Shown piece by piece: positions 10,264 to 58,763 of a stretch of DNA of 64,000 nucleotides (position 1 is its first letter; the number at the start of each line of letters is the position of its first letter). This DNA is from Minisyncoccota bacterium (lineage in GTDB: Bacteria; Patescibacteriota; Minisyncoccia; Phycocordibacterales; CSBR16-193), in the NCBI GenBank assembly GCA_040905715.1, contig JBBDRA010000002.1:101968-165967 (forward strand), written 5' to 3'. A program made the position numbers and the translations under genes. The notes beneath the pieces were generated by a model. It did not search any database and was not told the DNA's origin. It worked only from the letters and a program-made list of their open reading frames with translations.

Positions 10264-10366
10264 CGTATTGATTGTTATAATAATGCTGTGCACATATCGC
10301 ACCCTTCAGCGCAGAATATGGGGGGGTGGTATGATGACAGAGTCACTATGCCTGTAAATTAATTGT

Positions 10367-10804: not shown

Positions 10805-10891
10805 TCAGTTGCATAACTAACATGTAACGCATACGAACAAGACTGAATTGTTCATCGTATCGATATGATACACTAGAGAAAGCTCATTATT

Positions 10892-11554: not shown

Positions 11555-11577
11555 ATCGCGGTAATTGCACTATATAT

Positions 11578-13416: not shown

Positions 13417-13422
13417 CCTTCC

Positions 13423-14115: not shown

Positions 14116-14167
14116 TGGATAATATGCTCACCCCACTTCTAAATAGACGTGATAGAATAACACTATA

Positions 14168-20800: not shown

Positions 20801-20826
20801 AAGAGAAGAATTAATAAACACTATCT

Positions 20827-21930
20827 ATGAATGTTGAATGCGTAAAAGATAAACTCGAACAAGCGCTCACAAAGGCAACGCGAGTTACTAGCAAGAACGT
20901 GACACTGCCGGTGCTTCAGTGCGTACTCCTCGAAGCAGCTGACAACCAGCTTCTTATTCGGGCAACAAACCTTGATCTCGGCGTGGAGATCGGTTTGTCG
21001 GTGAAAGTAAAAGAAGAAGGTATTGTTGCGGTGCCCGGTTCGATCTTAGCTTCATTCCTTTCCCATGTTTCAGATGAGTCGGTTACGCTCGAGCGTGAAG
21101 GCGAGCAGCTTGTCGTGAAGACGGCAAGTGCTTCAACAAAGATCAATACGTATGACCACGAAGATTTTCCAACGATCCCACGAGTAACGGACGGTGTTTC
21201 TTTTTCAGTTGACTCGAGTACGTTTGCTGAAGGATTTCACTCGGTTGCGTACAGCGCTGCTGTCTCAAGTATGAAGCCGGAACTCTCAAGTGTGTATATC
21301 GCACCGGCAAGCGACCAGCGGTCACTCGTCTTTGCTGCAACTGATTCATTTCGCCTCGCGGAAAAGAAGGTACAAATGAAAGAGGTGCCGGTGTTTGATT
21401 ACGTACTTGTGCCGGTTAAGAATACGAACGAGATCACACGCATGCTCGATGAGTATAACGGCACTATCGAGATCAAGTTCGGTGAAAGCCAGGTGGCGTT
21501 TGTCGGCGACGGGCTGTATGTGACATCACGTACGGTCGATGGGGTATTCCCCGACTACCAGCAGATCATTCCGACTGAGTTTTCAGCTGAAGCGACCGTG
21601 TTAAAAAATGATCTGGTAACAGCGCTTAAAGTTGCCACCATCTTTACTGATAAATTTAATCAGGTAACCGTATCAATTGATCCGGGCCAAAAACAATTCA
21701 CCTTGCAGACAAAGAACAGTGAGGTTGGTGAGAATACGTATTCACTCGACGGAGCGTTGAGCGGCGAAGCATTAACGATAGCTTTTAATCATAAATACAT
21801 AATGGATAGTTTTCAGTCTATCACTACCGACAGCGTGGTGCTGAAACTGGGCGGCCCTGGCAAGCCGATGGTCATGAGCGGGGTTTCTGATCCATCTTTT
21901 CTTTACTTGGTGATGCCGATGAATAGATAG
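20827..21930 (+). CDS. dnaN: DNA polymerase III beta sliding clamp
   Basis: Three-domain clamp length (367 aa) immediately after dnaA. Confidence 0.9.
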   Translation: MNVECVKDKLEQALTKATRVTSKNVTLPVLQCVLLEAADNQLLIRATNLDLGVEIGLSVKVKEEGIVAVPGSILASFLSHVSDESVTLEREGEQLVVKTASASTKINTYDHEDFPTIPRVTDGVSFSVDSSTFAEGFHSVAYSAAVSSMKPELSSVYIAPASDQRSLVFAATDSFRLAEKKVQMKEVPVFDYVLVPVKNTNEITRMLDEYNGTIEIKFGESQVAFVGDGLYVTSRTVDGVFPDYQQIIPTEFSAEATVLKNDLVTALKVATIFTDKFNQVTVSIDPGQKQFTLQTKNSEVGENTYSLDGALSGEALTIAFNHKYIMDSFQSITTDSVVLKLGGPGKPMVMSGVSDPSFLYLVMPMNR

Positions 21931-34976: not shown

Positions 34977-35105
34977 TGTCCGCCCGGTAGCCTGCCTGCC
35001 GGAAGGCAGGGAATCGCCTCTCCCTTCGGTCGAAATGCGCTAAAAACATAGTCGCAAGCCTGTCTGCCAACAGGCAGGCTCCTTGTTTTTAGGCACCTTC
35101 GGTTC
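34977..35105. repeat. Degenerate partial copy of the tRNA-Lys 3-prime region interrupted by a 20-nt hairpin insert, plus an inverted T-loop-like ggttcgattcc
   Basis: tgtccgcccggtag[cctgcctgccggaaggcagg]gaatcgcc compared with the real tgtccgcccggtaggaatcgaacc at 35164-35190. Confidence 0.55.
35057..35090 (+). terminator. Intrinsic terminator after holA
   Basis: Stem agcctgtctg / caggcaggct with loop ccaa, followed by ccttgttttt. Confidence 0.5.
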
Positions 35106-35119
35106 GATTCCTTCCCAAG

Positions 35120-35157
35120 CATACAAAACAAAGGCACGGGAGAAAACCCGTGCCTTT
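35120..35157 (-). terminator. Intrinsic terminator downstream of tRNA-Lys
   Basis: Stem aaaggcacggg/cccgtgccttt followed on the minus strand by ttttgtat. Confidence 0.55.
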
Positions 35158-35166
35158 GTTTTGTTG

Positions 35167-35239
35167 TCCGCCCGGTAGGAATCGAACCTACGACCGTCTC
35201 CTTAAAAGGGAGCTGCTCTACCGACTGAGCTACGGGCGG
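35167..35239 (-). tRNA. tRNA-Lys (anticodon TTT)
   Basis: Cloverleaf read by hand: acceptor CCGCCCG/CGGGCGG, D-arm GCTC-AGTCGGTA-GAGC, anticodon loop CTTTTAA, T-arm GTAGG-TTCGATT-CCTAC. Confidence 0.8.
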
Positions 35240-35284
35240 AAGTGAGGACGATCAGAAATATATCATATATATTTATGTTTCGTC

Positions 35285-35400
35285 CGAATGCACCGCCCGA
35301 AAGATTTTCTTACGGGCGGGAATGAGCGGTATCGCGCGAGAGCTAGCTCTCGCATGATCCGCGATTGACCGTTCGCAAGCTTTGCTTACGGGCGGGTAAT
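35285..35400. repeat. tRNA-Lys upstream region with two partial copies of the tRNA 5-prime end and palindromes
   Basis: cccgcccgtaag copies (minus-strand sense) at 35309-35320 and 35386-35397. Perfect 18-bp palindrome gcgagagctagctctcgc at 35336-35353. Confidence 0.5.
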
Positions 35401-41170: not shown

Positions 41171-41222
41171 TGTACTTAATTTTCTGATGCCCCGCTGGCT
41201 GGCGGAGAACTAGAAAAAGAAG

Positions 41223-41250
41223 TGCTCCCGGCAGGAATCGGCCCCGCGAG
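41223..41250. repeat. Partial duplicate of the tRNA-Arg(GCG) 3-prime end (att-like)
   Basis: gtgctcccggcaggaatcg repeats the sequence at 41499-41517. Confidence 0.6.
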
Positions 41251-41257
41251 TTCTAAG

Positions 41258-41400
41258 TATTTTGCTTCGCTCAAACAAATAAGGCTTCTTGTGTTTTCTT
41301 CGAAAACATCCGCGAAGCGAATGTGTGCTTTTTTGGATACGGAACGTTACACTTGCAAAAAACACACATTCGCCTGGCCGGCGCCTCACATCGCTACGCG
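41258..41400. repeat. Repeat element copy A (about 135 bp; second copy at 51364-51500)
   Basis: Shares a 53-nt exact core cttcttgtgttttcttcgaaaacatccgcgaagcgaatgtgtgcttttttgga and a conserved long hairpin cgaatgtgtg...cacacattcg. Confidence 0.6.
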
Positions 41401-41465
41401 ATATGTTCCGGCGCTTCGATTCCTGACGAAAGTGCAGAAATGCACTTTCTCCGGAAACACAAATT

Positions 41466-41496
41466 AAAAAAACCAGGTAAAACCTGATTTTTTAAT
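41466..41496. terminator. Hairpin ccaggt-aaa-acctg with flanking A/T runs, immediately 3-prime of the tRNA on the minus strand
   Basis: Seen in sequence. Confidence 0.4.
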
Positions 41497-41499
41497 TTG

Positions 41500-41571
41500 T
41501 GCTCCCGGCAGGAATCGAACCTACATTACGAGCTCCGCAAGCCCGCGTTCTATCCGTTGAACTACGGGAGC
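41500..41571 (-). tRNA. tRNA-Arg (anticodon read as GCG)
   Basis: Acceptor GCTCCCG/CGGGAGC, D-arm GTTC-AACGGATA-GAAC, anticodon stem CGGGC/GCTCG with loop TTGCGGA (G37), T-arm GTAGG-TTCGATT-CCTGC. Confidence 0.75.
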
Positions 41572-41720
41572 AAATGAGGGGTATCGCGCAAAAGCATACT
41601 CTCTGGCAAGTGAGGGATACGAGAAAACTCGTTTTCATCGTATCACGAACGAAGTCAGAGAAAGCTATGCGACTTTGTTTTCTTTTGAACAGCTTTGCTT
41701 ACGGGAGCAAGGCTTGCGTC
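41565..41720. repeat. tRNA-Arg(GCG) leader region, inverted homolog of 45996-46130, including a partial tRNA 5-prime copy
   Basis: Over 90% identity in reverse complement to the leader of tRNA-Arg(TCT). The ttgctcccgtaag copy is at 41698-41710. Confidence 0.6.
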
Positions 41721-41782
41721 AACGCGATAAACTGTATCCTGAAACGAATGCGCTGTAAAGCAGGGCTTTGCTGTTAGAACAA

Positions 41783-42307
41783 CTAAAAGCCCATCCACTC
41801 CATGATTTTTTGCGAAAGTGGTTCAAACAACTCTTCCTCATCCACAAAATCAAGCATGTAGTCGGTAACATCTTCCGGATCCACCTCTTCTTCATTGATC
41901 GGAATAACAATGAGTGGCATGAGTATCTTATGAGATTTAGCCAGTAGTTTTGGTCCTTCCTGGCTCTCTTCATCGTTTTCTACCCAAAATGATTCAAGAG
42001 TGTTAAATGGATATAGTTTTTTGTTGATTACTACGCCTCGACTCGTGATAGCAATATTCATTTCCGCAGGACCGTTGAGCGACTGGATCATCAACGCAAT
42101 TGCGGCTATAACGATCAGGATTGCAAACAAAAAGTTTCCGAAAATAATAGATGCCATCGCAATAGAAAGAGCAATAAGTCCAACTGCCCAGTACCAATCA
42201 GCTGTTTTGTTTAGATGCTCATGCTCTAGCGTTGACCACTCAAGTTTTTCAGGAAGGTCAGGGTGCGAGTGCACCAAGGTATGAGTTGACTGAGGTGATC
42301 GTGCCAT
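41783..42307 (-). CDS. Hypothetical membrane protein (two TM helices)
   Basis: ORF with hydrophobic helices and no recognised motif. Confidence 0.4.
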   Translation of the reverse strand: MARSPQSTHTLVHSHPDLPEKLEWSTLEHEHLNKTADWYWAVGLIALSIAMASIIFGNFLFAILIVIAAIALMIQSLNGPAEMNIAITSRGVVINKKLYPFNTLESFWVENDEESQEGPKLLAKSHKILMPLIVIPINEEEVDPEDVTDYMLDFVDEEELFEPLSQKIMEWMGF

Positions 42308-42436
42308 AGATAGATATTATTATATCACACACACGCATGCAGCAATCAACGTTTTCGATACCGTTTCTTAGATGAATATAGATATTACAAAACCTAATTA
42401 TTGTGGCGAGTGCTTCTCTTTGGTAAGATGGCGTAG

Positions 42437-42688
42437 ATGGAGAATATTAATGATTCGACGCTTGTAACACTGCTTGCTATTGTTGTGGTTACCTTGCCGT
42501 TTAAAGGAACAGCATTATGGATGGCGGCACGTCGATCACACATGAGGTGGTTTATCGTGCTGTTGATCGTTAACAGCCTTGCTATTCTCGAAATCATCTA
42601 TATATTCTTTATTGCGAAGCAGTACACTGTTGAAGTGGAAGAAACGAATGCTGATTCGAGACACTCGTCGTCAGACATTGAAAAATAA
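42437..42688 (+). CDS. Small two-TM hypothetical protein
   Basis: ORF only. Confidence 0.3.
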   Translation: MENINDSTLVTLLAIVVVTLPFKGTALWMAARRSHMRWFIVLLIVNSLAILEIIYIFFIAKQYTVEVEETNADSRHSSSDIEK

Positions 42689-42692
42689 CATA

Positions 42693-42777
42693 CGGAGGGC
42701 TGCGCCGAATGGCTAAGGCACCGGTCTTGAAAACCGGCGGGTTCACGCCCTTGTGGGTTCGAGTCCCACGCCCTCCG
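42693..42777 (+). tRNA. tRNA-Ser (anticodon TGA)
   Basis: Type II tRNA. Acceptor GGAGGGC/GCCCTCC, anticodon stem CCGGT/ACCGG with loop CTTGAAA, long variable arm, T-arm GTGGG-TTCGAGT-CCCAC. Confidence 0.8.
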
Positions 42778-42843
42778 CACCGAGATTATTTATGAGTTTG
42801 CTCACTTGCTACTGCATACCGAATACGAGATACTGAATACTGT

Positions 42844-43227
42844 ATGAAATATCTCGGTATCGACTTCGGCACAAAGAAAGTTGGTCTTGCTCTCTCAGAC
42901 GAGTCAGGAACATTTGCGAATCCATTGAAAGTGATCCCGAATAATGATGATCTCGTTAATGAGATCAAACGATTATGCGCAGAGCACGAGGTTTCGGTGA
43001 TCGTGCTTGGTTTATCAACAAATTTTAAAGGAGAGGATAACCCGGTAATGAAAGAAGCGCGTCAGGTGAAGGAGGTGCTTGAACGAGATGAAGCAGTCAA
43101 GGTAGAACTTGAACCGGAATTTCTTACTACTGCACACGCCGCGCGCACCGAAGAAAACAAAGCCACGCTCGACGCTTCTGCAGCAGCGTTGATACTCCAG
43201 AGTTTTCTTGATCGCCACAAGGAATAG
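42844..43227 (+). CDS. ruvX: Holliday-junction-resolvase-like nuclease YqgF/RuvX
   Basis: MKYLGIDFGTKKVGLALSD N-terminus. Confidence 0.8.
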   Translation: MKYLGIDFGTKKVGLALSDESGTFANPLKVIPNNDDLVNEIKRLCAEHEVSVIVLGLSTNFKGEDNPVMKEARQVKEVLERDEAVKVELEPEFLTTAHAARTEENKATLDASAAALILQSFLDRHKE

Positions 43228-43286
43228 GTTTTTCTTGTGCGCATAAGCAGGTTTTGAAACGCACGCACCTGCGTTATAATACCTCT

Positions 43287-44351
43287 ATGACAAGCAACGA
43301 GTTCCTGCACTTTTTTCCAGCACCAACATTTCTTCAGATGCCGACTGCCGGGCTTGATATTGCTGATGGAGAAATACGTTTCATTGAGCTTCGCGAAGAC
43401 CGCGGAGTTCTTGGGCTTCAAAATTACGGGATGCAAAAGATAGCTAATGACGTGATCGAAGAAGGCTCTATTGAGAAAAAAGAGGAACTTGTAGCAGCTC
43501 TTACAAAAATCCGCGAAGAGAACGGTCTTAAGTTTGTGCGAGTCTCTCTCCCCGAAGAAAAATCATACGTATTTCATACAACAGTTCCGTACGCTGCAAA
43601 CCCTGATGAAATGCGAGACGCTATTAGCTTCACGATCGAAGAAAACGTTCCTCTGTCAGCGGAAAATGTAGTGTTCGATTACAACGTGATAGGTAGAAAG
43701 TCCGTAAAGGTATCGGAAGATGTGGATGTTGCTGTCTCGGCACTCCCGATCAATGTTGTAGAAATGTATATTGATGTAATTCGATCAAGCGGGTTACGCC
43801 CGATGTCACTTATGGTTGAGTCGCAAGCTATCGCGCGATCGGTGGTCCCAAAGGAAAATCCAAATTCATTCTTGGTTATAAATATCGATACGGAAACATC
43901 GGTGGTATATATCGTAAATAATAATACAGTACACTTCACGTCAGCGTTTCCTACAAAAAATGCAGGTTCAAGTGTTTTAACTTCTAGCACTTCGATCACC
44001 CAAGAAGGGGAGCTTGTTGATAATAAGGAAGATTCAATAAGTGAAGAAGATACTTTTTTCTCGAATGCGTCTGAGATACTTGCTGAAGTAAAGCGAGTGT
44101 ATGATTATTGGCATTCGCGTGGCATCGGGTCACAAAAGGACAACCAAGTGAAAAAATTTCTTATATGTGGAGATCACGCCCTCGATAAACAGTTTCAGAA
44201 AAAGCTTGCTGAAACATTTTCGGTTGATGTTGAGACCGCGAATGTCTGGATAAACGCGATGACATTTGACGAGTCTGTACCAGAGATACCTGTTGATGAA
44301 GCACTGCGGTATGCTGCCGCGATCGGTTTGGCACTTCCTCAAAATATATGA
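43287..44351 (+). CDS. pilM: Type IV pilus assembly protein PilM (actin-like ATPase)
   Basis: PilM-like pattern LDIADGEIRFIEL and actin fold length. Start moved to the ATG 6 nt after a TATAAT box, since the ORF-track start is a TTG. Confidence 0.65.
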   Translation: MTSNEFLHFFPAPTFLQMPTAGLDIADGEIRFIELREDRGVLGLQNYGMQKIANDVIEEGSIEKKEELVAALTKIREENGLKFVRVSLPEEKSYVFHTTVPYAANPDEMRDAISFTIEENVPLSAENVVFDYNVIGRKSVKVSEDVDVAVSALPINVVEMYIDVIRSSGLRPMSLMVESQAIARSVVPKENPNSFLVINIDTETSVVYIVNNNTVHFTSAFPTKNAGSSVLTSSTSITQEGELVDNKEDSISEEDTFFSNASEILAEVKRVYDYWHSRGIGSQKDNQVKKFLICGDHALDKQFQKKLAETFSVDVETANVWINAMTFDESVPEIPVDEALRYAAAIGLALPQNI

Positions 44352-44899
44352 TCAACCTGCTACCAGAGAGTGAGAAAAAACGAGTTCGCCGCGAATATAA
44401 TGTGCGCCGCATGGTTGTCGTGGTTATTTTTGCGTGTGTGACCGGTGTTATTGTCGGTATTGCGTTGCTGCCATCCTATATGCATGTGCAGGCGCGTAAA
44501 CAAGCACTTAGCCAAGAACTTGATCATCTGGAAAGATCAACAGACAGTAAAAGATCGCAAGAGTATGCAGAACGTCTTGAACGCGCGAATCAAATGATAT
44601 CTATTCTGACTCCACACAAAAATTACATTCCGGCCTATGTCCTCATAGAGAATTTAGTTGATAACCTGACGGAAGAGGTAAGATTACGCGGTATGAGTTA
44701 CGAGCGCAAAATCACAGAAGATGGTGAGCGCAGTATCCTTTTGTCAGTGACCGGTGTTGCTGCGGATCGGGACGCTCTCACCGCGTTAAAACAAGCACTC
44801 GAAGAAGTTTCGTATTTCGATGAAGTTGATCTACCGATCTCGAATTTTGCGGAGCGAGAGAATATTGAGTTCTCCATGACCTTAACCGGAACCCTCTAA
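44348..44899 (+). CDS. pilN: Type IV pilus assembly protein PilN
   Basis: N-terminal MINLLPE motif followed by a single TM helix. Overlaps the pilM stop. Confidence 0.7.
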   Translation: MINLLPESEKKRVRREYNVRRMVVVVIFACVTGVIVGIALLPSYMHVQARKQALSQELDHLERSTDSKRSQEYAERLERANQMISILTPHKNYIPAYVLIENLVDNLTEEVRLRGMSYERKITEDGERSILLSVTGVAADRDALTALKQALEEVSYFDEVDLPISNFAERENIEFSMTLTGTL

Positions 44900-44904
44900 C
44901 ACAT

Positions 44905-45450
44905 ATGTCCTCGAGTATAAAAACATTATCAATATCATGTCTTGTCGTTCTCGTTGTGAGCGGTATTGTGATCGGTTTTTTCTACGAGATACGATCAGTG
45001 AACAGTGAAGCGAATGCTATTGCAGAACAGGTGAGGGTTGAGCGTGAGCGTCAGCAACGTTCAGAGTCAGTACAGGAAACACTTGAGAACAACGTTCAAG
45101 AGATCAACAGTCTTGGCTCATATATTGTGGGTGCAGATGAAACACCTGATTTCTTGAGCATGGTGGAAGAAGTTGGCACACAAAGCGGGGCCACTATCAG
45201 TACAGAATCAGTAGAGACATTGGATGAGGACGAATCAGATCAAGGGGAGCTTTTACAGATGAACGTAGTGATCTCCGGAAGTTGGCAGGAGGTATACCGT
45301 TCGGTCGCTCTAATAGAAACATTGCCATTCAAGATCACGGTGACTGCTTTTAATTTTTCTCAGAAAAGCACCGGAGAAGAAGAGGGCCCTGCTATTCAGT
45401 GGGAGGCAAAGGTAAAATTAGATGTCGTTAAATTAACTTCAACTCTATAA
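44905..45450 (+). CDS. PilO-like membrane-anchored protein
   Basis: Single TM helix and a coiled-coil region, in operon position after pilN. Confidence 0.45.
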   Translation: MSSSIKTLSISCLVVLVVSGIVIGFFYEIRSVNSEANAIAEQVRVERERQQRSESVQETLENNVQEINSLGSYIVGADETPDFLSMVEEVGTQSGATISTESVETLDEDESDQGELLQMNVVISGSWQEVYRSVALIETLPFKITVTAFNFSQKSTGEEEGPAIQWEAKVKLDVVKLTSTL

Positions 45451-45452
45451 TT

Positions 45453-45791
45453 ATGTTCGCTCGTATTAAAAAACAACTACGCGCAGTGATCCCGCAAGGC
45501 AAGGGGCGGGGTACCGGTGCGCACCCAATGTTTCAACCGGAGCATGACTGGCAGATCATGAGCGCTGCGTTTATTGTAGTAAATGTAGTGGTCGCCGTTA
45601 TTGCGTGGTATATGTACATTCAGGTAGAGTCAGGAACCTTTTTTGCGAGCACTGTTGTGCAGGAAGAGAATAGCAGTGCTCAACTTCAAAAAAATGAACT
45701 GACAAATATCATTGAACATTACGAGCAAAAAAAGAGACGTTCCGGTGAATTTCAACGCGAAGCCGAGGTCATAATTGACCCTTCAGAGTAA
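45453..45791 (+). CDS. Small single-TM protein (fourth gene of the pilMNO operon)
   Basis: Operon context. Confidence 0.35.
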   Translation: MFARIKKQLRAVIPQGKGRGTGAHPMFQPEHDWQIMSAAFIVVNVVVAVIAWYMYIQVESGTFFASTVVQEENSSAQLQKNELTNIIEHYEQKKRRSGEFQREAEVIIDPSE

Positions 45792-45829
45792 TGGTAGTAT
45801 GGTTTTGGGGCTTGCTTATTGAGTGAGCA

Positions 45830-46194
45830 GAATTTGCTCCCGTAAGTAAACTTGCTCTGACAACGCTCGGACGGTACGTAAACGCGTTTCCGACCGCTCC
45901 TCGCTTGTCAGAGTAAGCGAAGCTTTCGAAAGCTACATTCGCGGATCATGCAAAAGCAAGCACCACCAGGGCACTTCTTGTTTTCTAATTCACAGCGAAG
46001 CTGTTCATAAGAAAACAAAGTCGCATAGCTTTCTCTGACTTCGTTCGTGATACGATGAAAACGAGTTTTCTCGTATCACTCACTTGTCAGAGAGTATGCT
46101 TTTGCGTGATGCCGTTCACTTGCTCCCGTAAGCGAAGCTTTCGGGATCTGCGTTCGAAGAAAATAGAAGTAAACTTCAATTTTGCTTCTCACTT
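45830..46194. repeat. tRNA-Arg(TCT) leader with two partial tRNA 5-prime copies and nested palindromes
   Basis: ttgctcccgtaag at 45834-45846 and 46119-46131. Palindromes agctttcgaaagct (45921-45934) and aaacgcgttt. 45996-46130 is the inverted homolog of 41565-41700. Confidence 0.6.
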
Positions 46195-46266
46195 GCTCCC
46201 GTAGTTCAACGGATAGAACAAGGGGCTTCTATCCCCTCAATGTGGGTTCGATTCCTACCGGGAGCA
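46195..46266 (+). tRNA. tRNA-Arg (anticodon TCT)
   Basis: Acceptor GCTCCCG/CGGGAGC, anticodon stem AGGGG/CCCCT with loop CTTCTAT, T-arm GTGGG-TTCGATT-CCTAC. The first 25 nt are identical to tRNA-Arg(GCG). Confidence 0.85.
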
Positions 46267-46271
46267 CAATG

Positions 46272-46318
46272 AAACACACGGATGTTTTTGAAAAAAACAT
46301 CCGTGTGTTTCGTATTTT
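46272..46318 (+). terminator. Intrinsic terminator (18-bp stem aaacacacggatgttttt/aaaaacatccgtgtgttt) after the tRNA
   Basis: Seen in sequence. Confidence 0.55.
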
Positions 46319-46422
46319 GGAGTAGGAATCGAACCGGGAAGGGGTCGGGGAACGGTAGTTCCCCGTGAAGGAAAGGTGGAAAAACCGTGGGTTTTCCAGA
46401 TGTTCTTTCCTGCCGGGAGCAC
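46319..46422 (+). repeat. tRNA-associated structured element, copy 1 (GGGAAGGGGTCGGG hairpin family)
   Basis: Left flank ggagtaggaatcgaacc, hairpin cggggaac-ggta-gttccccg, second hairpin ggaaaaacc-gtg-ggttttcc, right flank cctgccgggagcac (tRNA 3-prime duplicate). Confidence 0.6.
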
Positions 46423-46582
46423 TACCAGAGTACTTCTTTATTTCTAACTCGCTTCCGCTCATAAGGGCTAAAAGTCGCACAACCAGAGCACCTCTTAAAA
46501 TATCCCACCGTAACAAACTGTCGGCAAAACCAGTCTTCACTAGCAGGCGTTTCATGTTCCTTCAAATATAAAGGATGCCAAG

Positions 46583-47161
46583 ATGGTGAAGAAGAAGGTA
46601 AAAGCGAAAGTCGGCGAGAACAGATCTCCTCAGCTAACGGGTGAACAAATACAGTATATCGAAGAGAGAATAGCCAGTATTGGATCGGCAAAGCGTTCGC
46701 TCGATGAGTTGCAGGCGCAAATGGATCAGCAGATCGAAGAGGTTCGCGAGTCGTTCCGATCACGAACACAGCAGAGTGCTACTGTGGTTCAGGAAAAGCT
46801 AGATGAGCTCTATCAGTTCTGTGAGGAGAACGCCGAGGCGGTTACTCAGGGCGGACTTCAGCAAAGTGTGAAGGTAAGCAACGGGCAACTTGGTTGGAGA
46901 TTAGGGAATACCACCGTGGAAGTAATAGAAGCTGAAGATTCGGTGATAGCTCGTATCAAGCAGCGCAGTCTAAGTCGAAAGTTGTTGATACAGACTCCGC
47001 GACTGAACAAGATAGCTATCAAAGCTTTTCTGGAAGCCGGTTGCCGCATTAAGGGTGTTGTGCTCAAAACACCTCAGCGGTTCTTCGTAAAGCCCTCTGA
47101 GACCGTGGAAGGGGTCTCGAAAGATGTTCAGACACTTCAAAAGCTCTCCGGCAAAAAGTAA
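46583..47161 (+). CDS. Phage Mu Gam-like DNA-end-binding protein
   Basis: Blockwise similarity to Mu Gam as recalled from memory, not checked against a database: FCEENAEAVTQGG vs WCEANRDELTNGG, NGQLGWRLGNTTVEV vs TGDVSWRVRPPSVSI, RLNKIAI vs EINKEAI. Confidence 0.65.
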   Translation: MVKKKVKAKVGENRSPQLTGEQIQYIEERIASIGSAKRSLDELQAQMDQQIEEVRESFRSRTQQSATVVQEKLDELYQFCEENAEAVTQGGLQQSVKVSNGQLGWRLGNTTVEVIEAEDSVIARIKQRSLSRKLLIQTPRLNKIAIKAFLEAGCRIKGVVLKTPQRFFVKPSETVEGVSKDVQTLQKLSGKK

Positions 47162-47234: not shown

Positions 47235-47395
47235 TAATTTGTGATATACTTCTATCCCAACAACACAAGTGAGTAGATAAAGAGGAAGAGGGTGTAATTC
47301 CCCACAGTCGCGCTACTGTAAAGTCAGACCTTCTTTATCGAACTTTTCCAAAGCTCACCGTGACGCGCGTTTCGTCGACTTTCTATATATAAGTC
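47235..47395 (+). promoter_or_regulatory. Candidate cobalamin riboswitch in the nrdB-nrdA leader
   Basis: GAGGAAGAGGGTGTAATTCCCCACAGTCGCGCTACTGTAAAGTCAGACC contains a GGTGnAAnTCC-like core, CGCTACTGT (B12-box-like GCCACTG with one mismatch) and an AGTCAG element. The leader is 314 nt long. Confidence 0.4.
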
Positions 47396-47397: not shown

Positions 47398-47430
47398 ATT
47401 AACGTGTGCACGAAGTGCACACGTTTTCTG
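47398..47430 (+). terminator. Putative riboswitch expression-platform terminator
   Basis: Perfect 10-bp stem acgtgtgcac/gtgcacacgt followed by ttttctgtt, 45 nt before the nrdB start. Confidence 0.45.
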
Positions 47431-47475
47431 TTAAACAGAAATGGGCGCTGTTGGTTTATCAGTAACTTCACTTAT

Positions 47476-48786
47476 ATGAAAATCACTGAAGTTCGGAAAC
47501 GCAATGGCTCTGTTCAGGTATTTGATAGCAGTAAGATCACCAAGGCAGTTACAAAAGCGTTTGATGCGATTGAGGGTGGCAGCAACGCTGACGCGACAAA
47601 GGTGGCAAAAAATGTTGAAAAAAAGGTGGTAGAGATGTGTGAACAGGATGCAAAGCTCCCTGATAGTTCACCGAAGAAAAAATGTAAAGACGGAAAACCT
47701 TCAGTAGAGGAGATCCAGGATCTGGTCGAAGAAGCGCTTATGGAAATGGAGTTTTATGATGTCGCTAAGGCGTATATCTTGTACAGGAATAAACGAAAGG
47801 AGATGCGTGAGCGAGACCTTTTTCGCAAACGGATCAACCTTAAGCCGTATGAATATCCGGAACTCGTGGAATACGTTGATGCTATACGGCATTCGTACTG
47901 GATCCATACCGAATTCAATTACACAAGTGATGTGCACGACTACAAGGTAAATATCACGGACATAGAAAGAAGCGCTCTTAAAAATGCAATGCTGGCCATT
48001 GCTCAGATCGAAGTGGCGGTCAAAACGTTCTGGGGAGATCTCTATAAAAAAATGCCAAAGCCGGAGCTTGGCGCGGTCGGGTACACCTTCGCTGAAAGCG
48101 AGGTGCGGCATATGAATGCGTATTCTCACCTCCTTGAGATCCTCGGTCTCAATAATGAATTTGAAGACCTCGTTGATGTGCCGGTTATACAAGGCCGGGT
48201 TGCGTATCTTGAAAAAGTGGTTGCGCTATCTCGGACCGATGACAACAAAGAATACACACAGGCAATTCTCCTATTCTCTCTCTTCGTTGAACATGTGTCG
48301 TTGTTCTCACAGTTTCTGGTAATGATGTCATTCAATAAATACAAGAACCTTTTTAAGGGCATCTCGAATACTGTTGAGGCCACATCGAAAGAAGAACAGA
48401 TCCACGGACTCTTTGGTATCGACCTTATCAATACGATTCATCGCGAACACCCGGAGTGGTTTGATGATAGAACAAAAGCTCTCATTGAGAATATGACACA
48501 GGAAGCATTCAAGGCAGAGGAGGGAATAGTCGATTGGATCTTCGAGGCAGGAGAGCTTGATTTTCTACCGAAAAAGGACGTGAAAGAGTTTATAAAGCAA
48601 AGGCTCAATAATTCACTGGTGAGTATTAAAATGAAGCCGCTCTTTGAAGTGGATGAAGAGATCGTTTCGTCTCTCAGCTGGTTCGATGAAGAAGTGATCG
48701 GCACAAAGCACGTCGATTTCTTTGCAAAGCGGTCAATTAATTACAACAAACGAAAAAGCAGCATAACGAGCGCTGACCTTTTTTAG
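47476..48786 (+). CDS. nrdB: Ribonucleotide reductase small subunit NrdB with an N-terminal ATP-cone domain
   Basis: N-terminal MKITEVRKRNGSVQVFDSSKI (ATP-cone), then a ferritin-like R2 domain with iron ligands (EVRHMNAYSH, EEQIHG). Confidence 0.8.
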   Translation: MKITEVRKRNGSVQVFDSSKITKAVTKAFDAIEGGSNADATKVAKNVEKKVVEMCEQDAKLPDSSPKKKCKDGKPSVEEIQDLVEEALMEMEFYDVAKAYILYRNKRKEMRERDLFRKRINLKPYEYPELVEYVDAIRHSYWIHTEFNYTSDVHDYKVNITDIERSALKNAMLAIAQIEVAVKTFWGDLYKKMPKPELGAVGYTFAESEVRHMNAYSHLLEILGLNNEFEDLVDVPVIQGRVAYLEKVVALSRTDDNKEYTQAILLFSLFVEHVSLFSQFLVMMSFNKYKNLFKGISNTVEATSKEEQIHGLFGIDLINTIHREHPEWFDDRTKALIENMTQEAFKAEEGIVDWIFEAGELDFLPKKDVKEFIKQRLNNSLVSIKMKPLFEVDEEIVSSLSWFDEEVIGTKHVDFFAKRSINYNKRKSSITSADLF

Positions 48787-51078: not shown

Positions 51079-51103
51079 AGCCTCTCTGTGCGAGTGTCCG
51101 TAT

Positions 51104-51160
51104 AGCTAAAATAAACACTAAAGACCCGGTCTTTAGTGTTTATTTGGTACTTTTTTGCAC
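51104..51160 (+). terminator. Intrinsic terminator after the pilin gene
   Basis: 17-bp perfect stem aaataaacactaaagac/gtctttagtgtttattt followed by a T-run. Confidence 0.6.
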
Positions 51161-51363
51161 AAACCTAATCACAAGAACAGGATGTGGAAGTTTTGTTTTG
51201 TGGGGTGGGGCTTCCGGTAGGGGCTCGGTCACACATAAATTTCCTGACGGAAATTTTGCGCGTTCCGTTATCACCGGTCTCGCACAGCTCGACATCGGTG
51301 ATTTCGCTTCGCGAACCTCCTGAAACATAAAGCAGTTTATGTTTCAGCCCCTCTCGTGGTTTT

Positions 51364-51500
51364 TGCCTTGCTTCGCAAACAAATCTTCTTGTGTTTTCTT
51401 CGAAAACATCCGCGAAGCGAATGTGTGCTTTTTTGGAGATGGAGCGCTTCGCTAGCAAGAAACACACATTCGGCTGCGCCTTTCTCGTCCCTACGCAGGC
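51364..51500. repeat. Repeat element copy B (homolog of 41258-41400)
   Basis: Same 53-nt core as copy A (positions 51385-51437) and the same cgaatgtgtg...cacacattcg hairpin with a different loop. Confidence 0.6.
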
Positions 51501-51519
51501 AAAGCAGTTTGCCTGCTCA

Positions 51520-51588
51520 ACGCCCACAAAGCAAAAATCTGCACGAATAATTCGCACAGATTTTTGCTTTGTGGGCGTTGAGGGACTC
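51520..51588. repeat. 24-bp perfect-stem hairpin overlapping a partial duplicate of the tRNA-Val 3-prime end
   Basis: caacgcccacaaagcaaaaatctg...cagatttttgctttgtgggcgttg. tgtgggcgttgagggactc at 51570-51588 repeats the sequence at 51720-51738. Confidence 0.55.
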
Positions 51589-51719
51589 AAATCTTACAGA
51601 TTCTGTACAGGTTTTCACTATTTTGTTTCGTTCCTCACAAAATAGTTGAAGAACCTTTTCGAGTCCGCGTTACGCCGCTGTCGCGGCTACGCCTCATCGT
51701 CCTCGCTCCTTCGTCGCTG

Positions 51720-51793
51720 TGGGCGTTGAGGGACTCGAACCCCCGGCCTATCCGGTGTAAACGGATTGCTCTAGCCAACTGAGCTAAACGCCC
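51720..51793 (-). tRNA. tRNA-Val (anticodon TAC)
   Basis: Acceptor GGGCGTT/AACGCCC, D-arm GCTC-AGTTGGCTA-GAGC, anticodon stem ATCCG/CGGAT with loop TTTACAC, T-arm GGGGG-TTCGAGT-CCCTC. Confidence 0.8.
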
Positions 51794-51891
51794 CTACTTC
51801 GCTCGGGTTGTCACCCGAGCTTCGAAGGACAAGTTGTATTTAATTTGTACCGCGTCTCGTCCTGCGAAGCTCGATTGCCAGTGAGAGCGTA

Positions 51892-51912
51892 GCGGGAAGC
51901 TAAACGCCCTAT
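51892..51912. repeat. Partial copy of the tRNA-Val 5-prime end upstream of the gene
   Basis: Minus-strand sense atagggcgtttagcttcccgc compared with the real gggcgtttagctcag. Confidence 0.45.
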
Positions 51913-54420: not shown

Positions 54421-54450
54421 AGTAAATCCACAGCTTGTGGATTTACTTTT
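54421..54450 (+). terminator. Hairpin agtaaatccacagcttgtggatttact plus T-run after rplS
   Basis: Seen in sequence. Confidence 0.5.
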
Positions 54451-54482
54451 ATCTAATTTGGTATACAATAAACACTAGAGAT

Positions 54483-55130
54483 ATGAGACGTGGATCAAAA
54501 CCAAAAGGGAAGGTGCGGATACAGTGGTCGTCTAACTTTGCGTATGCAATTGGTTTGCTTGCGGCAGATGGATGTTTATCAAAAGATGGTAGGCATATTG
54601 ACGTAACATCGAATGATTACGATCAACTTGAAAATTTTATTAAAGCTCTTGATATTGACGTAAAAATTACTCAAAAATCATCCGGAAGAGGGTATACAAG
54701 TTGGCATGTTCAGTTCAGTGATGTTCTTTTTTATAAGTTTCTTACTGAAATAGGTATAACCTCAGCAAAGAGTAAGACATTAAGAAAGCTTGATATTCCC
54801 GACGAATACTTTTTTGATTTTTTAAGAGGGGAATTTGATGGGGATGGACATTTTTATAGTTATTGGGATAAGCGATGGACGAATAGTTATATGTTTTATT
54901 TAACTTTTATTGGTGCAAGTCAGAAATTTCTTGAATGGATTTCACAAACTAATGAGCGTCTCATTGGTATAAAAGCGAATGTAATTTTTTGTAAAAAATC
55001 AAAGGTATATCAGTTACGTTATGCAAAAGAAAGCACTCTGGAAATAATCAATAAAATGTATTATACTTCCAGCGCACTTCATTTGAGGAGAAAAAAGAAA
55101 AAGATAGATGCTTTAGTAGTGCCTCGATAA
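54483..55130 (+). CDS. Free-standing double-motif LAGLIDADG homing endonuclease
   Basis: Motif 1 AYAIGLLAADGCL and motif 2 FLRGEFDGDGHF. AT-rich gene with its own ATG after the rplS terminator. Confidence 0.75.
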   Translation: MRRGSKPKGKVRIQWSSNFAYAIGLLAADGCLSKDGRHIDVTSNDYDQLENFIKALDIDVKITQKSSGRGYTSWHVQFSDVLFYKFLTEIGITSAKSKTLRKLDIPDEYFFDFLRGEFDGDGHFYSYWDKRWTNSYMFYLTFIGASQKFLEWISQTNERLIGIKANVIFCKKSKVYQLRYAKESTLEIINKMYYTSSALHLRRKKKKIDALVVPR

Positions 55131-57084: not shown

Positions 57085-57666
57085 ATGACTTTTTTTACAG
57101 GAAAAGGTGATGATGGCACTACTAAAACGTTCGGTTGCAATCAGCGAATATCAAAAAGCTCGGCTATTGCCGAGGCGCTTGGTACAGTCGATGAGCTCAA
57201 CTCATTTCTGGGTTTGCTTAAAGTGAAAGGCAGTGAGAGCAACGTGCTTGTGCCGAAAACGGAGGAAACCCTTGCCTCGCTTATTCATGCTATTCAGCAC
57301 GATCTGTTTATTGTCCAAGCAGAGCTTGCCGGAGCTGATAAAGCCATCGAGGAGGAAAAGGTGGTCAAGCTTGAGAAGATCATAAACACCATTGAACGCT
57401 CGCTCCCGGAGATCACGACGTTCTTTGTCTCCGGCGGAACCGAGCTTGCTGCGCTGTGTGATGTGGCTCGCACGATCACTCGGCGCGCCGAGCGCCGAGT
57501 GATCGCGGTGTACGACGGTTCGACAGACTCACCGCAGGCGAAGGGGCAAAAAGTAGATGCGCAGACCCTGGCCTATCTCAACCGCCTCTCCAGTATCTTT
57601 TATGCGTTGGCGCGACTTGTTAATCACCAGGCCGGAGTGAGTGAGGAGTCGCCGACGTATGTCTAG
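57085..57666 (+). CDS. PduO-type ATP:cob(I)alamin adenosyltransferase
   Basis: N-terminus MTFFTGKGDDGTT and overall length match the Cob_adeno_trans family. Confidence 0.75.
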   Translation: MTFFTGKGDDGTTKTFGCNQRISKSSAIAEALGTVDELNSFLGLLKVKGSESNVLVPKTEETLASLIHAIQHDLFIVQAELAGADKAIEEEKVVKLEKIINTIERSLPEITTFFVSGGTELAALCDVARTITRRAERRVIAVYDGSTDSPQAKGQKVDAQTLAYLNRLSSIFYALARLVNHQAGVSEESPTYV

Positions 57667-57755: not shown

Positions 57756-58253
57756 ATGCCAGATGTTTCATGCAAAAAATGCGGTAATACTTTTTATGCA
57801 AAACCAAATTGGTTAAAGCGTGGCTACGGAAAGTTCTGCTCCATTAATTGTACTCGCCTGGCAAGCAGGAGGGGTAGTTGGAAAGCATGTTGCCTTTGCA
57901 AAGAAAAGGTCTACAAATCACTAAAAGATATCCGGCGGTCAAAGAGCGGGAACTTTTTTTGTAGCAAGCGGTGTAGTTTAAAATGGCTTAGGTCAAAACA
58001 ATTTGGCAGAAATCATGCAAATTGGAAGCACGGAAAATATGCTTACAGAGGGATGCTCCTTCGTAGTGCGTTGAGCAGAAAATGCAAATTATGCGGTCGT
58101 GACGACGAACGTATCTTAATAGTTCATCATATAGATAAAAATCGTGAAAATAACAAAATAGATAATCTCACTTGGCTTTGCCTGAACTGTCATTATTTAG
58201 TTCATAATTATTCAGAGGCTGAGGACCAATTTCTTGACAGTCTAAATACATAA
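57756..58253 (+). CDS. HNH endonuclease with an N-terminal Cys-rich zinc-ribbon repeat
   Basis: HNH core VHHIDKNRENNKIDNLTWLCLNCH. Two CxxC...C...C modules at the N-terminus. Confidence 0.7.
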   Translation: MPDVSCKKCGNTFYAKPNWLKRGYGKFCSINCTRLASRRGSWKACCLCKEKVYKSLKDIRRSKSGNFFCSKRCSLKWLRSKQFGRNHANWKHGKYAYRGMLLRSALSRKCKLCGRDDERILIVHHIDKNRENNKIDNLTWLCLNCHYLVHNYSEAEDQFLDSLNT

Positions 58254-58256
58254 ATT

Positions 58257-58763
58257 ATGGAAAGGAGTTGTGAAATATGTAAAGCGACGTTTAAAACAAA
58301 ACCTTATTTTATTCGGAAAGGGCAAGGGCGCTTTTGTTCTAAAAAATGTCAATACGAAAGTTTCAAAACTGGTTCAAGTATCACTTGCGATACCTGTAAG
58401 AAGAACGTCTATAGGAATAGGTCGGGCTTAGGTAGATCCAAGAGTAGGAAATTCTTTTGTTCAAAATCGTGCCAAACAAAATGGAGAAATACGCAGTACA
58501 GTAGAGAGAAACATTTAGGTTGGAAGGACGGCGTTTCGTCATATCGAAATGCCATGCTAAGAAATAATGAATCGCAAGAGTGCAAGTTTTGCAAAGAAGT
58601 CGATGTGCGAGTTCTTGTTGTCCACCATGTTGATGAGGATCGAACCAACAACAAACTGGAAAATCTTTGCTGGTTATGCCATAATTGCCACCACCTTGTT
58701 CACCATTGCAAAGGCGAGTCAGAAAAGATTCGCTCGATCATTGGTAAAGGCAAAGAACAGTAG
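58257..58763 (+). CDS. HNH endonuclease (tandem paralog)
   Basis: HNH core VHHVDEDRTNNKLENLCWLCHNCH. Same architecture as the preceding gene. Confidence 0.7.
   Translation: MERSCEICKATFKTKPYFIRKGQGRFCSKKCQYESFKTGSSITCDTCKKNVYRNRSGLGRSKSRKFFCSKSCQTKWRNTQYSREKHLGWKDGVSSYRNAMLRNNESQECKFCKEVDVRVLVVHHVDEDRTNNKLENLCWLCHNCHHLVHHCKGESEKIRSIIGKGKEQ

Follow-up and report, generated by a model that had tools for sequence, protein, structure and literature searches.

The two tRNA-Arg loci and the segment between them

The window, a stretch of 64,000 nucleotides from contig JBBDRA010000002.1 of a Minisyncoccota bacterium, contains two tRNA-Arg genes on opposite strands. Each is preceded by one arm of an inverted repeat, and the segment between them carries pilMNO, ruvX and tRNA-Ser, as the initial annotation described:

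41499–41571, minus strand: tRNA-Arg(GCG) (ARAGORN; Rfam tRNA, 62.8 bits)
41563–41699, minus strand: left arm of the inverted repeat (repeat search, blastn, fold)
41783–45791: segment between the arms (ARAGORN, open reading frames, Pfam), comprising the next eight features
41783–42307, minus strand: 174-aa membrane protein
42437–42688, plus strand: DUF5652 protein
42694–42778, plus strand: tRNA-Ser(TGA) (ARAGORN and Rfam)
42844–43227: ruvX
43287–44351: pilM
44348–44899: pilN
44905–45450: pilO
45453–45791: 112-aa open reading frame
45994–46130, plus strand: right arm of the inverted repeat (repeat search, blastn, fold)
46195–46267, plus strand: tRNA-Arg(TCT) (ARAGORN and Rfam)

The arms are 137 nt long, 93% identical and 4294 nt apart (repeat search and blastn, E=2e-55), with nine mismatches and a longest perfect run of 69 nt; exact alignment upholds the first estimate of about 135 bp at over 90% identity. 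The left arm is made up of a 128-nt hairpin-rich unit and nucleotides 1–9 of tRNA-Arg. It has a GCRAAGC mini-hairpin motif at its start and a long hairpin (GCATAGC...GTATGC) within; the pairing of this hairpin is perfect in the right arm and disrupted by two changes in the left. Both arms are present as annotated, but their placement is not equivalent: the left arm adjoins tRNA-Arg(GCG) directly, with no gap, while the last 9 nt of the right arm (46122–46130) are a stranded tRNA 5'-end copy, and a further 64 nt lie between the arm and tRNA-Arg(TCT). The two tRNAs are identical in nucleotides 1–25, which confirms the reported identity of their acceptor and D arms. Their anticodon arms show 10 differences over 17 positions, and nucleotides 44–72 show three, the T arms being near-identical.

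The arm unit is species-specific: none of the other fetched loci contains a homologue. In a relative whose PilM is 68% identical, the Arg gene lacks it upstream and has only the proximal unit described below.

Copies of gene ends at the Arg genes

Around these genes, both loci carry further parts, many of which are copies of the tRNA ends:

41222–41466, minus strand: downstream unit of tRNA-Arg(GCG) (end-copy and repeat searches)
41467–41493, minus strand: intrinsic-terminator-like hairpin after tRNA-Arg(GCG) (predicted)
41700–41708, minus strand: stranded tRNA-Arg 5'-end copy GCTCCCGTA, distal to the left arm (end-copy search)
41731–41759, minus strand: promoter-like TTTACA-17-TACAGT, immediately preceding the distal 5'-end copy (consensus match only)
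45775–45803, plus strand: promoter-like TTGACC-17-TATGGT, upstream of the entire Arg(TCT) leader array (consensus match only)
45836–45993, plus strand: hollow tRNA-Arg-like shell (repeat and end-copy searches)
46122–46194, plus strand: proximal leader unit of tRNA-Arg(TCT) (cross-genome comparison)
46270–46312, plus strand: terminator-like hairpin of 20 pairs after tRNA-Arg(TCT) (predicted)
46336–46406, plus strand: Type A two-hairpin scaffold, GGGAAGGGGTCGGGGAAC..GTTCCCCGTGAAGG..TGGAAAAACCGTGGGTTTTCCA (comparison and fold)
46407–46503, plus strand: series of stranded 3'-end copies downstream of tRNA-Arg(TCT) (end-copy search)

The 5'-end copy GCTCCCGTA has five matches in the window, against 0.29 expected. 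After tRNA-Arg(GCG), the terminator palindrome spans 41451–41508 and takes in an inverted copy of the acceptor 3' strand (41451–41460). The downstream unit contains an inverted T-loop copy, CAGGAATCGAAG (41414–41425), and a module (41262–41376) with 87% identity to 51368–51476 downstream of tRNA-Val; it closes with a stranded tRNA 3'-end copy, GATTCCTGCCGGGAGCAC (41222–41239), followed by an old trailer (41205–41221).

At the Arg(TCT) locus, the hollow shell runs from a 5'-end copy GCTCCCGTA (45836–45844) through hairpins to a degenerate 3'-end copy, CACCAGGGCAC (45964–45974), and an old trailer, TTCTTGTTTTCTAATTCAC; a module inside it resembles a unit upstream of tRNA-Lys (82% over 49 nt). 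The proximal unit consists of a mini-helix (46122–46148), formed by the 5'-end copy and its complement around a AGCGAAGCT loop, then TGCGTTCG, a second hairpin (46157–46188) and TCACTT. It is kept at Arg(TCT) in three distant genomes (L043, L028 and L030) and also occurs at Lys, Ala and Asp genes. Its stem tracks the acceptor stem of the cognate tRNA, with 6.1 of 7 pairs versus 4.9 of 7 for non-cognate stems. Downstream of the gene, a palindrome (46245–46335) includes the tRNA T arm and its inverted copy (46322–46335), and the scaffold is followed by stranded ends that become progressively degenerate. The first, TTCCTGCCGGGAGCAC (46407–46422), reproduces 16 nt of the Arg(GCG) 3' end exactly, its T-stem reading CCTGC and that of the adjacent Arg(TCT) CCTAC; the second (46423–46450) is degenerate and retains its old trailer, and the third, CAACCAGAGCAC (46480–46491), is also degenerate.

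Gene-end copies across the lineage

In Paceibacteria, tRNA genes lie among hairpin units and are bracketed by copies of their own ends. The copies are strictly sided: among 169 tRNAs, the 3' end recurs downstream of 25 and the 5' end upstream of 12, and no copy lies on the wrong side. Of these tRNAs, 89 come from the window and its relatives (5'-end copies: nine upstream, none downstream; 3'-end copies: 14 downstream, none upstream; inverted 3' copies: six downstream, none upstream) and 80 are independent metagenomic ones (5'-end copies: three upstream, none downstream; 3'-end copies: 11 downstream, none upstream). Two further examples from the window, both located by repeat and end-copy searches, are:

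34978–35395, minus strand: tRNA-Lys(TTT) (35166–35239) with its cassette
51100–51909, minus strand: tRNA-Val(TAC) (51719–51793) with its units

The tRNA-Lys cassette has 5'-end copies upstream (~35311–35319 and ~35387–35395) and a 3'-end copy downstream (~34978–34987), and can be aligned to the Arg(TCT) cassette over 263 nt. tRNA-Val has a 5'-end copy (~51901–51909) and a 3'-end copy (~51571–51580), then a terminator and an inverted copy, beyond which a second unit contains the 51368–51476 module. The general layout of a cassette is: working gene end, terminator or promoter, short inverted end copy, scaffold, older stranded end and old flank. In a search of the leaders and trailers against Rfam 15, only tRNA models match, even at E values up to 5. 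Stranded and working tRNA ends frequently remain the same in sequence, which fits either recent events or selection.

The Arg leader is a real inverted repeat, as first annotated, but not an Arg-specific one; it is one unit of a gene-end repeat family that occurs throughout the lineage and accompanies most tRNA genes in the window. As the arm unit has neither homologues nor the short inverted end copy seen beside scaffolds, and the left side of the right arm at the Arg(TCT) locus lacks a stranded 5' end, it is placed in this class by position and shared motifs only.

The Type A scaffold

The Type A scaffold is a conserved two-hairpin structure that is absent from Rfam. In the window it lies next to Arg(TCT) and downstream of tRNA-Leu (from 55289) and tRNA-His (from 58911), and it occurs in at least 120 metagenomic stretches, a biased sample gathered by exact pattern and taken irrespective of taxonomy. 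Both hairpins show compensatory changes and conserved loops. Sixty of 122 copies are found 28–134 nt after tRNAs (59 of them at 28–80 nt), representing about 30 anticodon types; the remainder lie at the ends of protein genes, such as those for DnaK and glycosyltransferases, where the same scaffold and grammar are in antisense orientation.

In 69 of 99 copies (controls 8–9), the scaffold is immediately preceded on its 5' side by sequence that repeats an upstream stretch in inverted form. Direct repeats on either side of the scaffold occur in 36 of 52 tRNA-linked copies (control 7) and in 28 of 48 others (control 4); the duplicated stretch derives from the end of the target gene and varies in length from 15 to 70 nt. 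Simple recombination does not account for the short inverted copy beside the scaffold.

At protein genes, dnaK among them, the differences between working and stranded ends are concentrated in one codon phase (112 of 188, versus a null of 89.4 ± 3.5; none of 20,000 permutations reaches the observed value). This bias shows the stranded ends to be former coding alleles that stem from a different lineage.

Relation to known elements

Miniature non-autonomous repeats (MITEs, Correia/ERIC-type repeats and Rickettsia palindromic elements) are small, hairpin-forming, multi-copy, intergenic and protein-less. In general character the units share all of these properties, and they likewise break short-read assemblies. 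Unlike such repeats, they have no constant terminal inverted repeats or short target duplication of fixed length; their flanking repeats are 15–70 nt of the neighbouring gene's end. Identity with MITEs fails on this point, although the units are small, multi-copy and non-coding.

In intron-less homing, free-standing homing endonuclease genes bring about co-conversion of flanking markers, as with T4 seg/mob and segB in the tRNA region. Here too the targets are conserved genes, and the codon-phase bias indicates that adjacent gene sequence has been replaced by a foreign donor allele. Moreover, the window has a LAGLIDADG_3 gene at tRNA-Leu (54435–55130) and two HNH genes at tRNA-His (57756–58763), in each case directly upstream of the tRNA gene, with a Type A scaffold downstream. 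However, most units have no endonuclease gene nearby, and a Pfam scan found none at either Arg gene. Among 120 metagenomic loci, phmmer detects homologues of the window's LAGLIDADG protein near the scaffold in two, belonging to a cluster of four loci; a second cluster (five loci) is LAGLIDADG-like in appearance, without confirmation by Pfam. In addition, classical homing is not known to leave a duplicated gene end, whereas one is present here, and any cleavage would be putative.

Parallels also exist with the attachment-site duplications made by integrative elements such as genomic islands and prophages, for which tRNA gene fragments have been discussed (PMC9897764). In both cases the insertion is bounded on its far side by a partial, directly oriented copy of the gene end, and the incoming DNA supplies a replacement end, a diverged allele, that leaves the gene intact. 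The units could be decayed integrase-driven elements or prophages, with stranded ends as old attR sites and the scaffold as an attP arm; the direct repeats of tRNA 3' ends, the foreign homologous replacement ends and the layering of stranded ends, which resembles tandem att sites, would all suit this origin. Nevertheless it is unlikely. The units measure only ~100–300 nt, and some 100 Type A copies are all free of enclosed cargo and integrases, with no protein family recurring beside them. One conserved scaffold serves dozens of unrelated targets with duplications of variable length, a single tRNA can have units at its 5' as well as its 3' end, and neither upstream stranded 5' ends nor the additional inverted copy beside the scaffold would be expected. 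Among 2.9 million viral contigs, Type A has a single match. The integrase or recombinase gene of an integrase-type element proper is absent from between and beside the repeats in these copies, and from the Arg loci.

Alternatively, the units may be functional parts of tRNA transcripts or nearby RNAs, serving processing, stability or regulation, with selection keeping their stems matched to the cognate tRNA. Folding strongly predicts structure in the Arg(TCT) leader (z = −8.4 for 45825–46275), the scaffold hairpins covary, the mini-helix tracks the cognate acceptor stem, and the proximal unit is conserved in distant genomes; the conservation of Type A across very distant genomes could itself reflect a host function. 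Such a role is nonetheless decidedly unlikely: scaffold and grammar recur in antisense at protein genes, where codon phase marks the stranded ends as former coding alleles of another lineage, and the progressive degeneracy of stranded ends looks like decay. Furthermore, many orthologous tRNA loci are entirely free of units, and terminators separate many units from their tRNA.

Orientation and age of the Arg loci

The initial annotation suggested that the arms can drive inversion of the 4.4 kb between them, with pilMNO and ruvX. Within their 137 nt the inverted arms share 69 nt without a mismatch, long enough for homologous recombination, and there are signs of recombination between the two Arg loci. 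Yet no flipped state is seen: the segment has one and the same orientation in two independent assemblies that cover it, those of the window and of GCA_040876875.1 (locus L005), and the orientation of pilMNO relative to the Val–Leu–His flank is constant in all relatives. Short-read contigs are uninformative here because they break inside the arms. A Pfam scan of every open reading frame in and beside the segment found no recombinase or site-specific invertase, and the promoter-like sites sit inside the segment with the leaders, so that flipping would not obviously switch pil expression. An invertible segment, whether as a switch or as a recurrent polymorphism, is highly unlikely, though flipping at low frequency may occur, and the label "switch" should not be applied without long-read evidence.

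The order Lys–Arg(gcg)–Ser–ruvX/pilMNO–Arg(tct)–Val–Leu–His is conserved in relatives with a PilM identity of just 24–37%, and the two Arg genes are mutually inverted in 8/8 relatives holding both. The proposal that one gene arose from the other by recent duplication with its leader and an anticodon-arm switch is extremely improbable: near-identical tRNA bodies, a common leader and an old trailer common to the stranded 3' ends at both loci would fit it, but both isoacceptors occupy these syntenic positions in eight relatives, each anticodon arm resembles its own orthologue (for example, tct that of L026 and gcg that of L015), and the pair differs at 10–19 positions outside the anticodon arm in seven relatives, versus four in this genome.

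Judged by sequence and gene order, both Arg genes are ancient positional orthologues rather than recent duplicates. Conserved synteny and orthologue-like anticodon arms imply that their likeness stems from later homogenisation, not from recent common origin, and the comparison points to an exchange of sequence between the genes and their leaders, probably by gene conversion, outside the anticodon arm and in this genome only. Concerted evolution between dispersed tRNA or rRNA copies would explain such near-identity of genes and leaders; here, however, the exchange is between two distinct isoacceptors that are inverted relative to each other, and the conversion tract includes a species-specific repeat unit.

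Proposed origin of the arms and cassettes

The reading that we hold with slightly more confidence than doubt is that the arms are copies of one repeat unit spread by gene conversion, and that this unit belongs to the lineage-wide gene-end cassettes. The unit would have arrived at the 5' ends of two ancient, already opposed tRNA-Arg genes. Non-reciprocal recombination, for which the shared tRNA 5' end would offer homology, may have spread it and homogenised the genes outside their anticodon arms. The repeat would be inverted because its two host genes are.

In the cassettes generally, a small piece of DNA would carry both a scaffold and its own version of a conserved gene end and, in a new genome, recombine into the gene homologous to it. 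The incoming end would replace the resident one, leaving the gene intact, and the resident end would be displaced outward and decay; successive events would build up layers of stranded ends. The cassettes would thus be small, protein-less elements that replace gene ends via horizontal recombination. The route may be homologous recombination, double-strand-break repair or a recombinase acting in trans, in which the scaffold and inverted copy may play a part. Since no presence/absence polymorphism with exact breakpoints was observed between close strains, we infer mobility rather than see it.

More tentatively, and possible rather than probable, the cassettes of Paceibacteria (candidate phyla radiation) may constitute an undescribed class of protein-less mobile elements of ~100–300 nt. 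Each would consist of the two-hairpin scaffold preceded by a short antisense of a conserved gene end, with tRNAs of ~30 anticodon types, dnaK and glycosyltransferase genes as targets. Insertion at a gene end would deliver a replacement end plus promoter or terminator, and the leftover resident end could provide a later transfer with its second homology arm. At its boldest, this reading would have the antisense segment and scaffold guide a nuclease or recombinase supplied in trans; the cassette would then be a naturally occurring "cut-and-rescue" homing element that targets essential genes.

Significance

The repeat accounts for the fragmentation of this organism's short-read assemblies at tRNA genes, and for the twin-like appearance of two different Arg tRNAs. 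For tiny, streamlined genomes, 300–650 nt of non-coding DNA per tRNA gene is unexpected. A scaffold absent from Rfam at the ends of essential genes, together with replacement by foreign alleles, points to a route by which DNA that encodes no enzyme could pass between distant genomes. If confirmed, the cassettes would represent a new kind of mobile element, would change the annotation of tRNA genes and pseudo-tRNA fragments in genomes of the candidate phyla radiation, and would provide markers of horizontal exchange among uncultured bacteria.

Inverted leaders of two tRNA-Arg genes

Both ARAGORN and Rfam call all three tRNAs that the initial annotation placed here, namely two oppositely oriented tRNA-Arg genes and a tRNA-Ser between them.

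41499-41571, minus strand: tRNA-Arg(gcg) (ARAGORN and Rfam)
42694-42778, plus strand: tRNA-Ser(tga) (ARAGORN and Rfam)
46195-46267, plus strand: tRNA-Arg(tct) (ARAGORN and Rfam)

The two Arg leaders form an inverted repeat, as had been proposed, with arms of 137 nt at 41563-41699 and 45994-46130 (93% identity, blastn E=2e-55; nine mismatches and a perfect run of 69 nt), and the gene content between them (pilMNO, ruvX and tRNA-Ser) is also as first listed. The arms are not, however, placed equivalently at the two genes. The left arm abuts tRNA-Arg(GCG) without a gap; the right arm stops 64 nt short of tRNA-Arg(TCT), and its last 9 nt (46122-46130) are a stranded copy of the tRNA 5' end. The long hairpin of the 137-nt unit pairs perfectly at Arg(TCT) and carries two disrupting changes at Arg(GCG).

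The arms had been expected to flip the pilMNO segment, a reading that is poorly supported. Alternative orientations were sought through exact-protein look-ups; a metagenome-assembled genome of Candidatus Paceibacterota encodes a protein with 100% identity to the PilM of the window. Same-species short-read assemblies break exactly within the tRNA-flanking repeats: one Logan contig consists of the 4,384-nt inter-arm stretch, and other contigs end at 41269-41305, 46048, 46152, 46400 and 51366. A single further contig spans the region (GCA_040876875.1, 99.97% identity to the window), with unchanged orientation. Across 34 distant relatives pilMNO likewise keeps one orientation with respect to the Arg(tct)-Val-Leu-His flank, and the segment between the arms encodes no recombinase. 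Inversion is thus physically possible, yet unobserved.

History of the Arg genes and their leaders

A recent origin of one Arg isoacceptor from the other, by duplication and an anticodon switch, is also poorly supported. Relatives with only 24-37% PilM identity share the order Lys - Arg(gcg) - Ser - ruvX/pilMNO - Arg(tct) - Val - Leu - His, and the two Arg genes lie in mutual inversion in all eight that hold both; they are therefore old positional orthologues. Differences between the two genes number 5-8 within nt 1-26 and 5-11 within nt 44-72 in seven relatives, compared with 1 and 3 in the window. The anticodon arms in the window still differ at 10 positions, and each resembles its orthologue. 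Separate positional orthologues with orthologue-like anticodon arms argue against a recent duplication; the best reading is gene conversion, confined to this lineage, that homogenised the pair to either side of the anticodon arm. The identical 5' ends of the two genes would allow a unit, together with adjacent tRNA sequence, to be copied from one gene to the other.

The anticodon GCG is carried by tRNA-Arg in the window and in the relatives' loci L011-L042, L142, L145 and L161 (all genomes), and ACG, the usual bacterial anticodon, by none of the Arg tRNAs found in the window or the relatives' loci, which suggests that CGN codons are decoded without inosine in these genomes. A possible ochre suppressor, a tRNA whose anticodon ARAGORN reads as TTA, is predicted in a distant relative (locus L031, about 1334, minus strand).

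The 137-nt unit is a recent, species-specific addition at both Arg genes, because the corresponding spacing is short in L043 (a locus with 68% PilM identity), no homologue of the unit occurs in any other of the 165 fetched loci, and the Arg(gcg) leaders of relatives are short, with an extended -10-like promoter directly 3' of the 174-aa ORF homologue. Between the 112-aa ORF and the Arg gene, L043 has only about 95 nt, filled by one proximal leader unit; the window has 404 nt there. The 137-nt unit is provisionally counted in the same class as the units described below by its position, its GCRAAGC start and the flanking 5'-end copy, and not by homology to them.

Spare copies of tRNA ends

Both Arg tRNAs begin with the same 9 nt, GCTCCCGTA, which occurs five times in the window against 0.29 expected; their 3' end, CCGGGAGCA, occurs four times against 0.32 expected. 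The spare copies all lie on the side of an Arg gene that corresponds to the end in question:

41700-41708, strand of the Arg gene: spare 5'-end copy, upstream
45836-45844, strand of the Arg gene: spare 5'-end copy, upstream
46122-46130, strand of the Arg gene: spare 5'-end copy, upstream
41222-41239: spare 3'-end copy, downstream
46407-46422: spare 3'-end copy, downstream

Increasingly degenerate 3'-end copies follow Arg(TCT) at 46407-46422, 46423-46450 and 46480-46491, a gradation that fits repeated events. Directly 3' of this array, a stand-alone Mu Gam-like (DNA-end-binding) protein gene is found at 46583-47161 (plus strand), with no phage genes nearby.

The window's tRNA-Lys, tRNA-Val and tRNA-Leu also have spare ends of their own on the corresponding side, and Lys, Val, Leu and His have flanking modules in common with Arg. 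The module at 41262-41376 is 87% identical to 51368-51476, the Lys and Arg(TCT) cassettes align over 263 nt, and a GAAGGGGTCGGG motif is found 3' of Arg(TCT), Leu and His. Sidedness was counted for 89 tRNAs with full flanks from the window and relatives, using exact 9-nt 5'-end and 10-nt 3'-end copies; chance expectation, by simple arithmetic, is about 0.1 per category. Own 5'-end copies lie upstream in nine cases and downstream in none, 3'-end copies downstream in 14 and upstream in none, and inverted 3'-end copies downstream in six and upstream in none. Eighty more independent tRNAs from metagenomic loci gave right-to-wrong-side counts of 3/0 for 5' copies and 11/0 for 3' copies.

The downstream layout runs from the tRNA through a terminator, an inverted copy of the T-loop and acceptor 3' strand, and hairpins to a direct 3'-end copy, sometimes in tandem; the upstream layout is its mirror image. 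Promoters and terminators near units are predicted by consensus match only. Antisense tRNA pseudogenes and split or permuted tRNAs were rejected, as the opposite strand allows no T-stem and protein genes show this grammar too.

GCGAAGC forms an unusually stable DNA mini-hairpin. Counting both the motif and its complement, the window has 26 copies, where dinucleotide-matched first-order Markov simulations give about 11 (maximum 16); about ten or eleven copies, tallied from listed positions, fall inside tRNA-flanking units.

Leader units and the Type A scaffold

The proximal leader unit (46122-46194) opens with a mini-helix formed by the 5'-end copy and its complement around the loop AGCGAAGCT. 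Then come TGCGTTCG, a second hairpin, often with a TGTGATATT-like -10 element, and TCACTT. Proximal units are also present at Arg(tct) of the loci L043, L028 (twice) and L030, and at Lys, Ala and Asp genes. The stem tracks the cognate acceptor stem, with 6.1/7 pairs versus 4.9/7 for non-cognate stems. The leader motif had no match in the viral contigs scanned.

Downstream of Arg(TCT), Leu and His lies a strongly conserved two-hairpin unit, the Type A scaffold, of the form GRAAGGGGTCGGGAAAAC-loop-GTTTTCCCGTGGAGGAAGG ... GGGAAAACCGTGGGTTTCCC. Metagenome contigs, scanned for the exact pattern irrespective of taxonomy, gave at least 120 stretches; viral contigs gave only one match in 2.9 million. 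Both hairpins vary by compensatory changes. Sixty of the 122 copies listed lie 28-134 nt (59 of them 28-80 nt) 3' of a same-strand tRNA, with about 30 anticodon types; the others among the matches listed follow the same grammar at protein-gene ends. At dnaK in the locus L046, the working N-terminus comes first, then its promoter region and 12 nt of inverted copy; the scaffold separates these from another, older N-terminus of dnaK.

Immediately 5' of the scaffold, upstream sequence is repeated in inverted form in 69 of 99 listed copies, versus 8-9 in controls. Direct repeats of 15-70 nt span the scaffold in 36/52 tRNA-linked and 28/48 other listed copies (controls 7 and 4). In tRNA-linked cases the inverted copy most often has its scaffold-proximal end in the T-loop, at a point about 21 nt from the 3' end of the tRNA, and the outer limit of the direct copy is variable. 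Such variable lengths rule out fixed-length target duplications as the source of stranded ends.

None of about 100 Type A copies encloses cargo. Clustering of 1,207 neighbouring ORFs gave no family present in more than 8 of the 120 loci listed, and the top clusters were housekeeping genes. In Rfam searches of 34.8-59.3 kb, at the gathering score and at E up to 5, leaders and trailers match tRNA only, and the Type A scaffold has no match. No published description of such units was found in full-text literature searches; TIGR-Tas and UG/Abi reverse-transcriptase systems were judged unrelated.

A second scaffold type is common to units 3' of tRNA-Leu(cag) and tRNA-Val in the locus L021 (12517-13190), with a conserved loop GTTTACGAGCTCAGCAGAGCTTGT and stems that differ through compensatory changes. 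A Type A variant in L048, L059, L073 (two copies) and L078 sits inside a longer repeat whose flanks are near-identical between contigs (...CCTAGGCAGGGATGAATGGCGGGTCAGCGA 5' of the scaffold; ...AACTCCGCTCGCC...GAGCGGAGTTTAC 3' of it), which suggests a multi-copy composite element.

Neighbouring genes

A LAGLIDADG_3-like gene (54435-55130, plus strand) ends 4 nt 5' of tRNA-Leu(gag), and two tandem HNH endonuclease genes (57756-58763, plus strand) end 6 nt 5' of tRNA-His; both tRNAs bear Type A scaffolds in their downstream flanks. LAGLIDADG homologues lie 5' of scaffold-bearing tRNAs in a few metagenomic loci. A homologous LAGLIDADG-like ORF, judged by eye on its C-terminal translation, precedes tRNA-Leu(gag) in a distant relative (L030).

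Elsewhere in the window, dnaA and dnaN (19418-21930, plus strand) and a GC skew that is positive throughout place the window next to the replication origin, on one replichore. A match to the AdoCbl (B12) riboswitch at 47255-47375 (plus strand), below threshold (39.2 bits, E=4e-4; the gathering score is 50), lies just 5' of a gene (47404-48786) for an NrdB that bears an ATP-cone at its N-terminus, and NrdA comes next; cobalamin adenosyltransferase is encoded at 57085-57666. Large ORFs without Pfam match (316, 400, 702, 343 and 453 aa; 4895-17080, plus strand) surround a TraG/VirB4-like P-loop ATPase (11578-13416), and the cluster could be a secretion or DNA-transfer apparatus.

Gene ends from other lineages

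Where a unit adjoins a protein gene, the working end, which is in use, can be compared with the stranded end, a spare copy beyond the unit. A frame-free codon-phase test replaced one on automatically assigned ORFs, which was noisy through spurious ORFs. In 21 copies that are not tRNA-linked, 112 of 188 differences cluster in one codon phase; the null is 89.4 +/- 3.5, and 112 was never reached in 20,000 permutations. Individual cases go up to 11/12, 8/8 and 9/12. In-place duplication followed by neutral decay should put at most about half of the differences in one phase. The one-phase excess indicates that both copies had evolved as coding sequence before they were joined; the gene end was swapped for the homologous end of another lineage.

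A purely functional RNA would agree with the covariation, and fits in part; it accounts neither for the protein-gene cases and the codon-phase signal nor for the units missing at many orthologous loci. Decayed integrase-type elements, also a partial fit, have att-like repeats and allele replacement in common with the units, but differ in size, in the many targets per scaffold and in the inverted copy. They also imply integrases; Pfam scans of most large window ORFs found no integrase, transposase, TnpB/IscB or reverse transcriptase.

The units are instead proposed to be gene-end cassettes, small DNAs that would move between genomes. Each would comprise a conserved gene end, its terminator or promoter, and a scaffold, and would enter the corresponding gene of another genome by recombination. 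One homology arm would be the gene body, the other the old stranded end at the far side of the cassette. Double-strand breaks could drive this recombination, and a guide-like function of the short inverted copy or the conserved scaffold is possible. Cassette recombination of this kind would explain the direct repeats, the foreign-allele signature, the layering, the bias to highly conserved sequence and the lack of an encoded enzyme.
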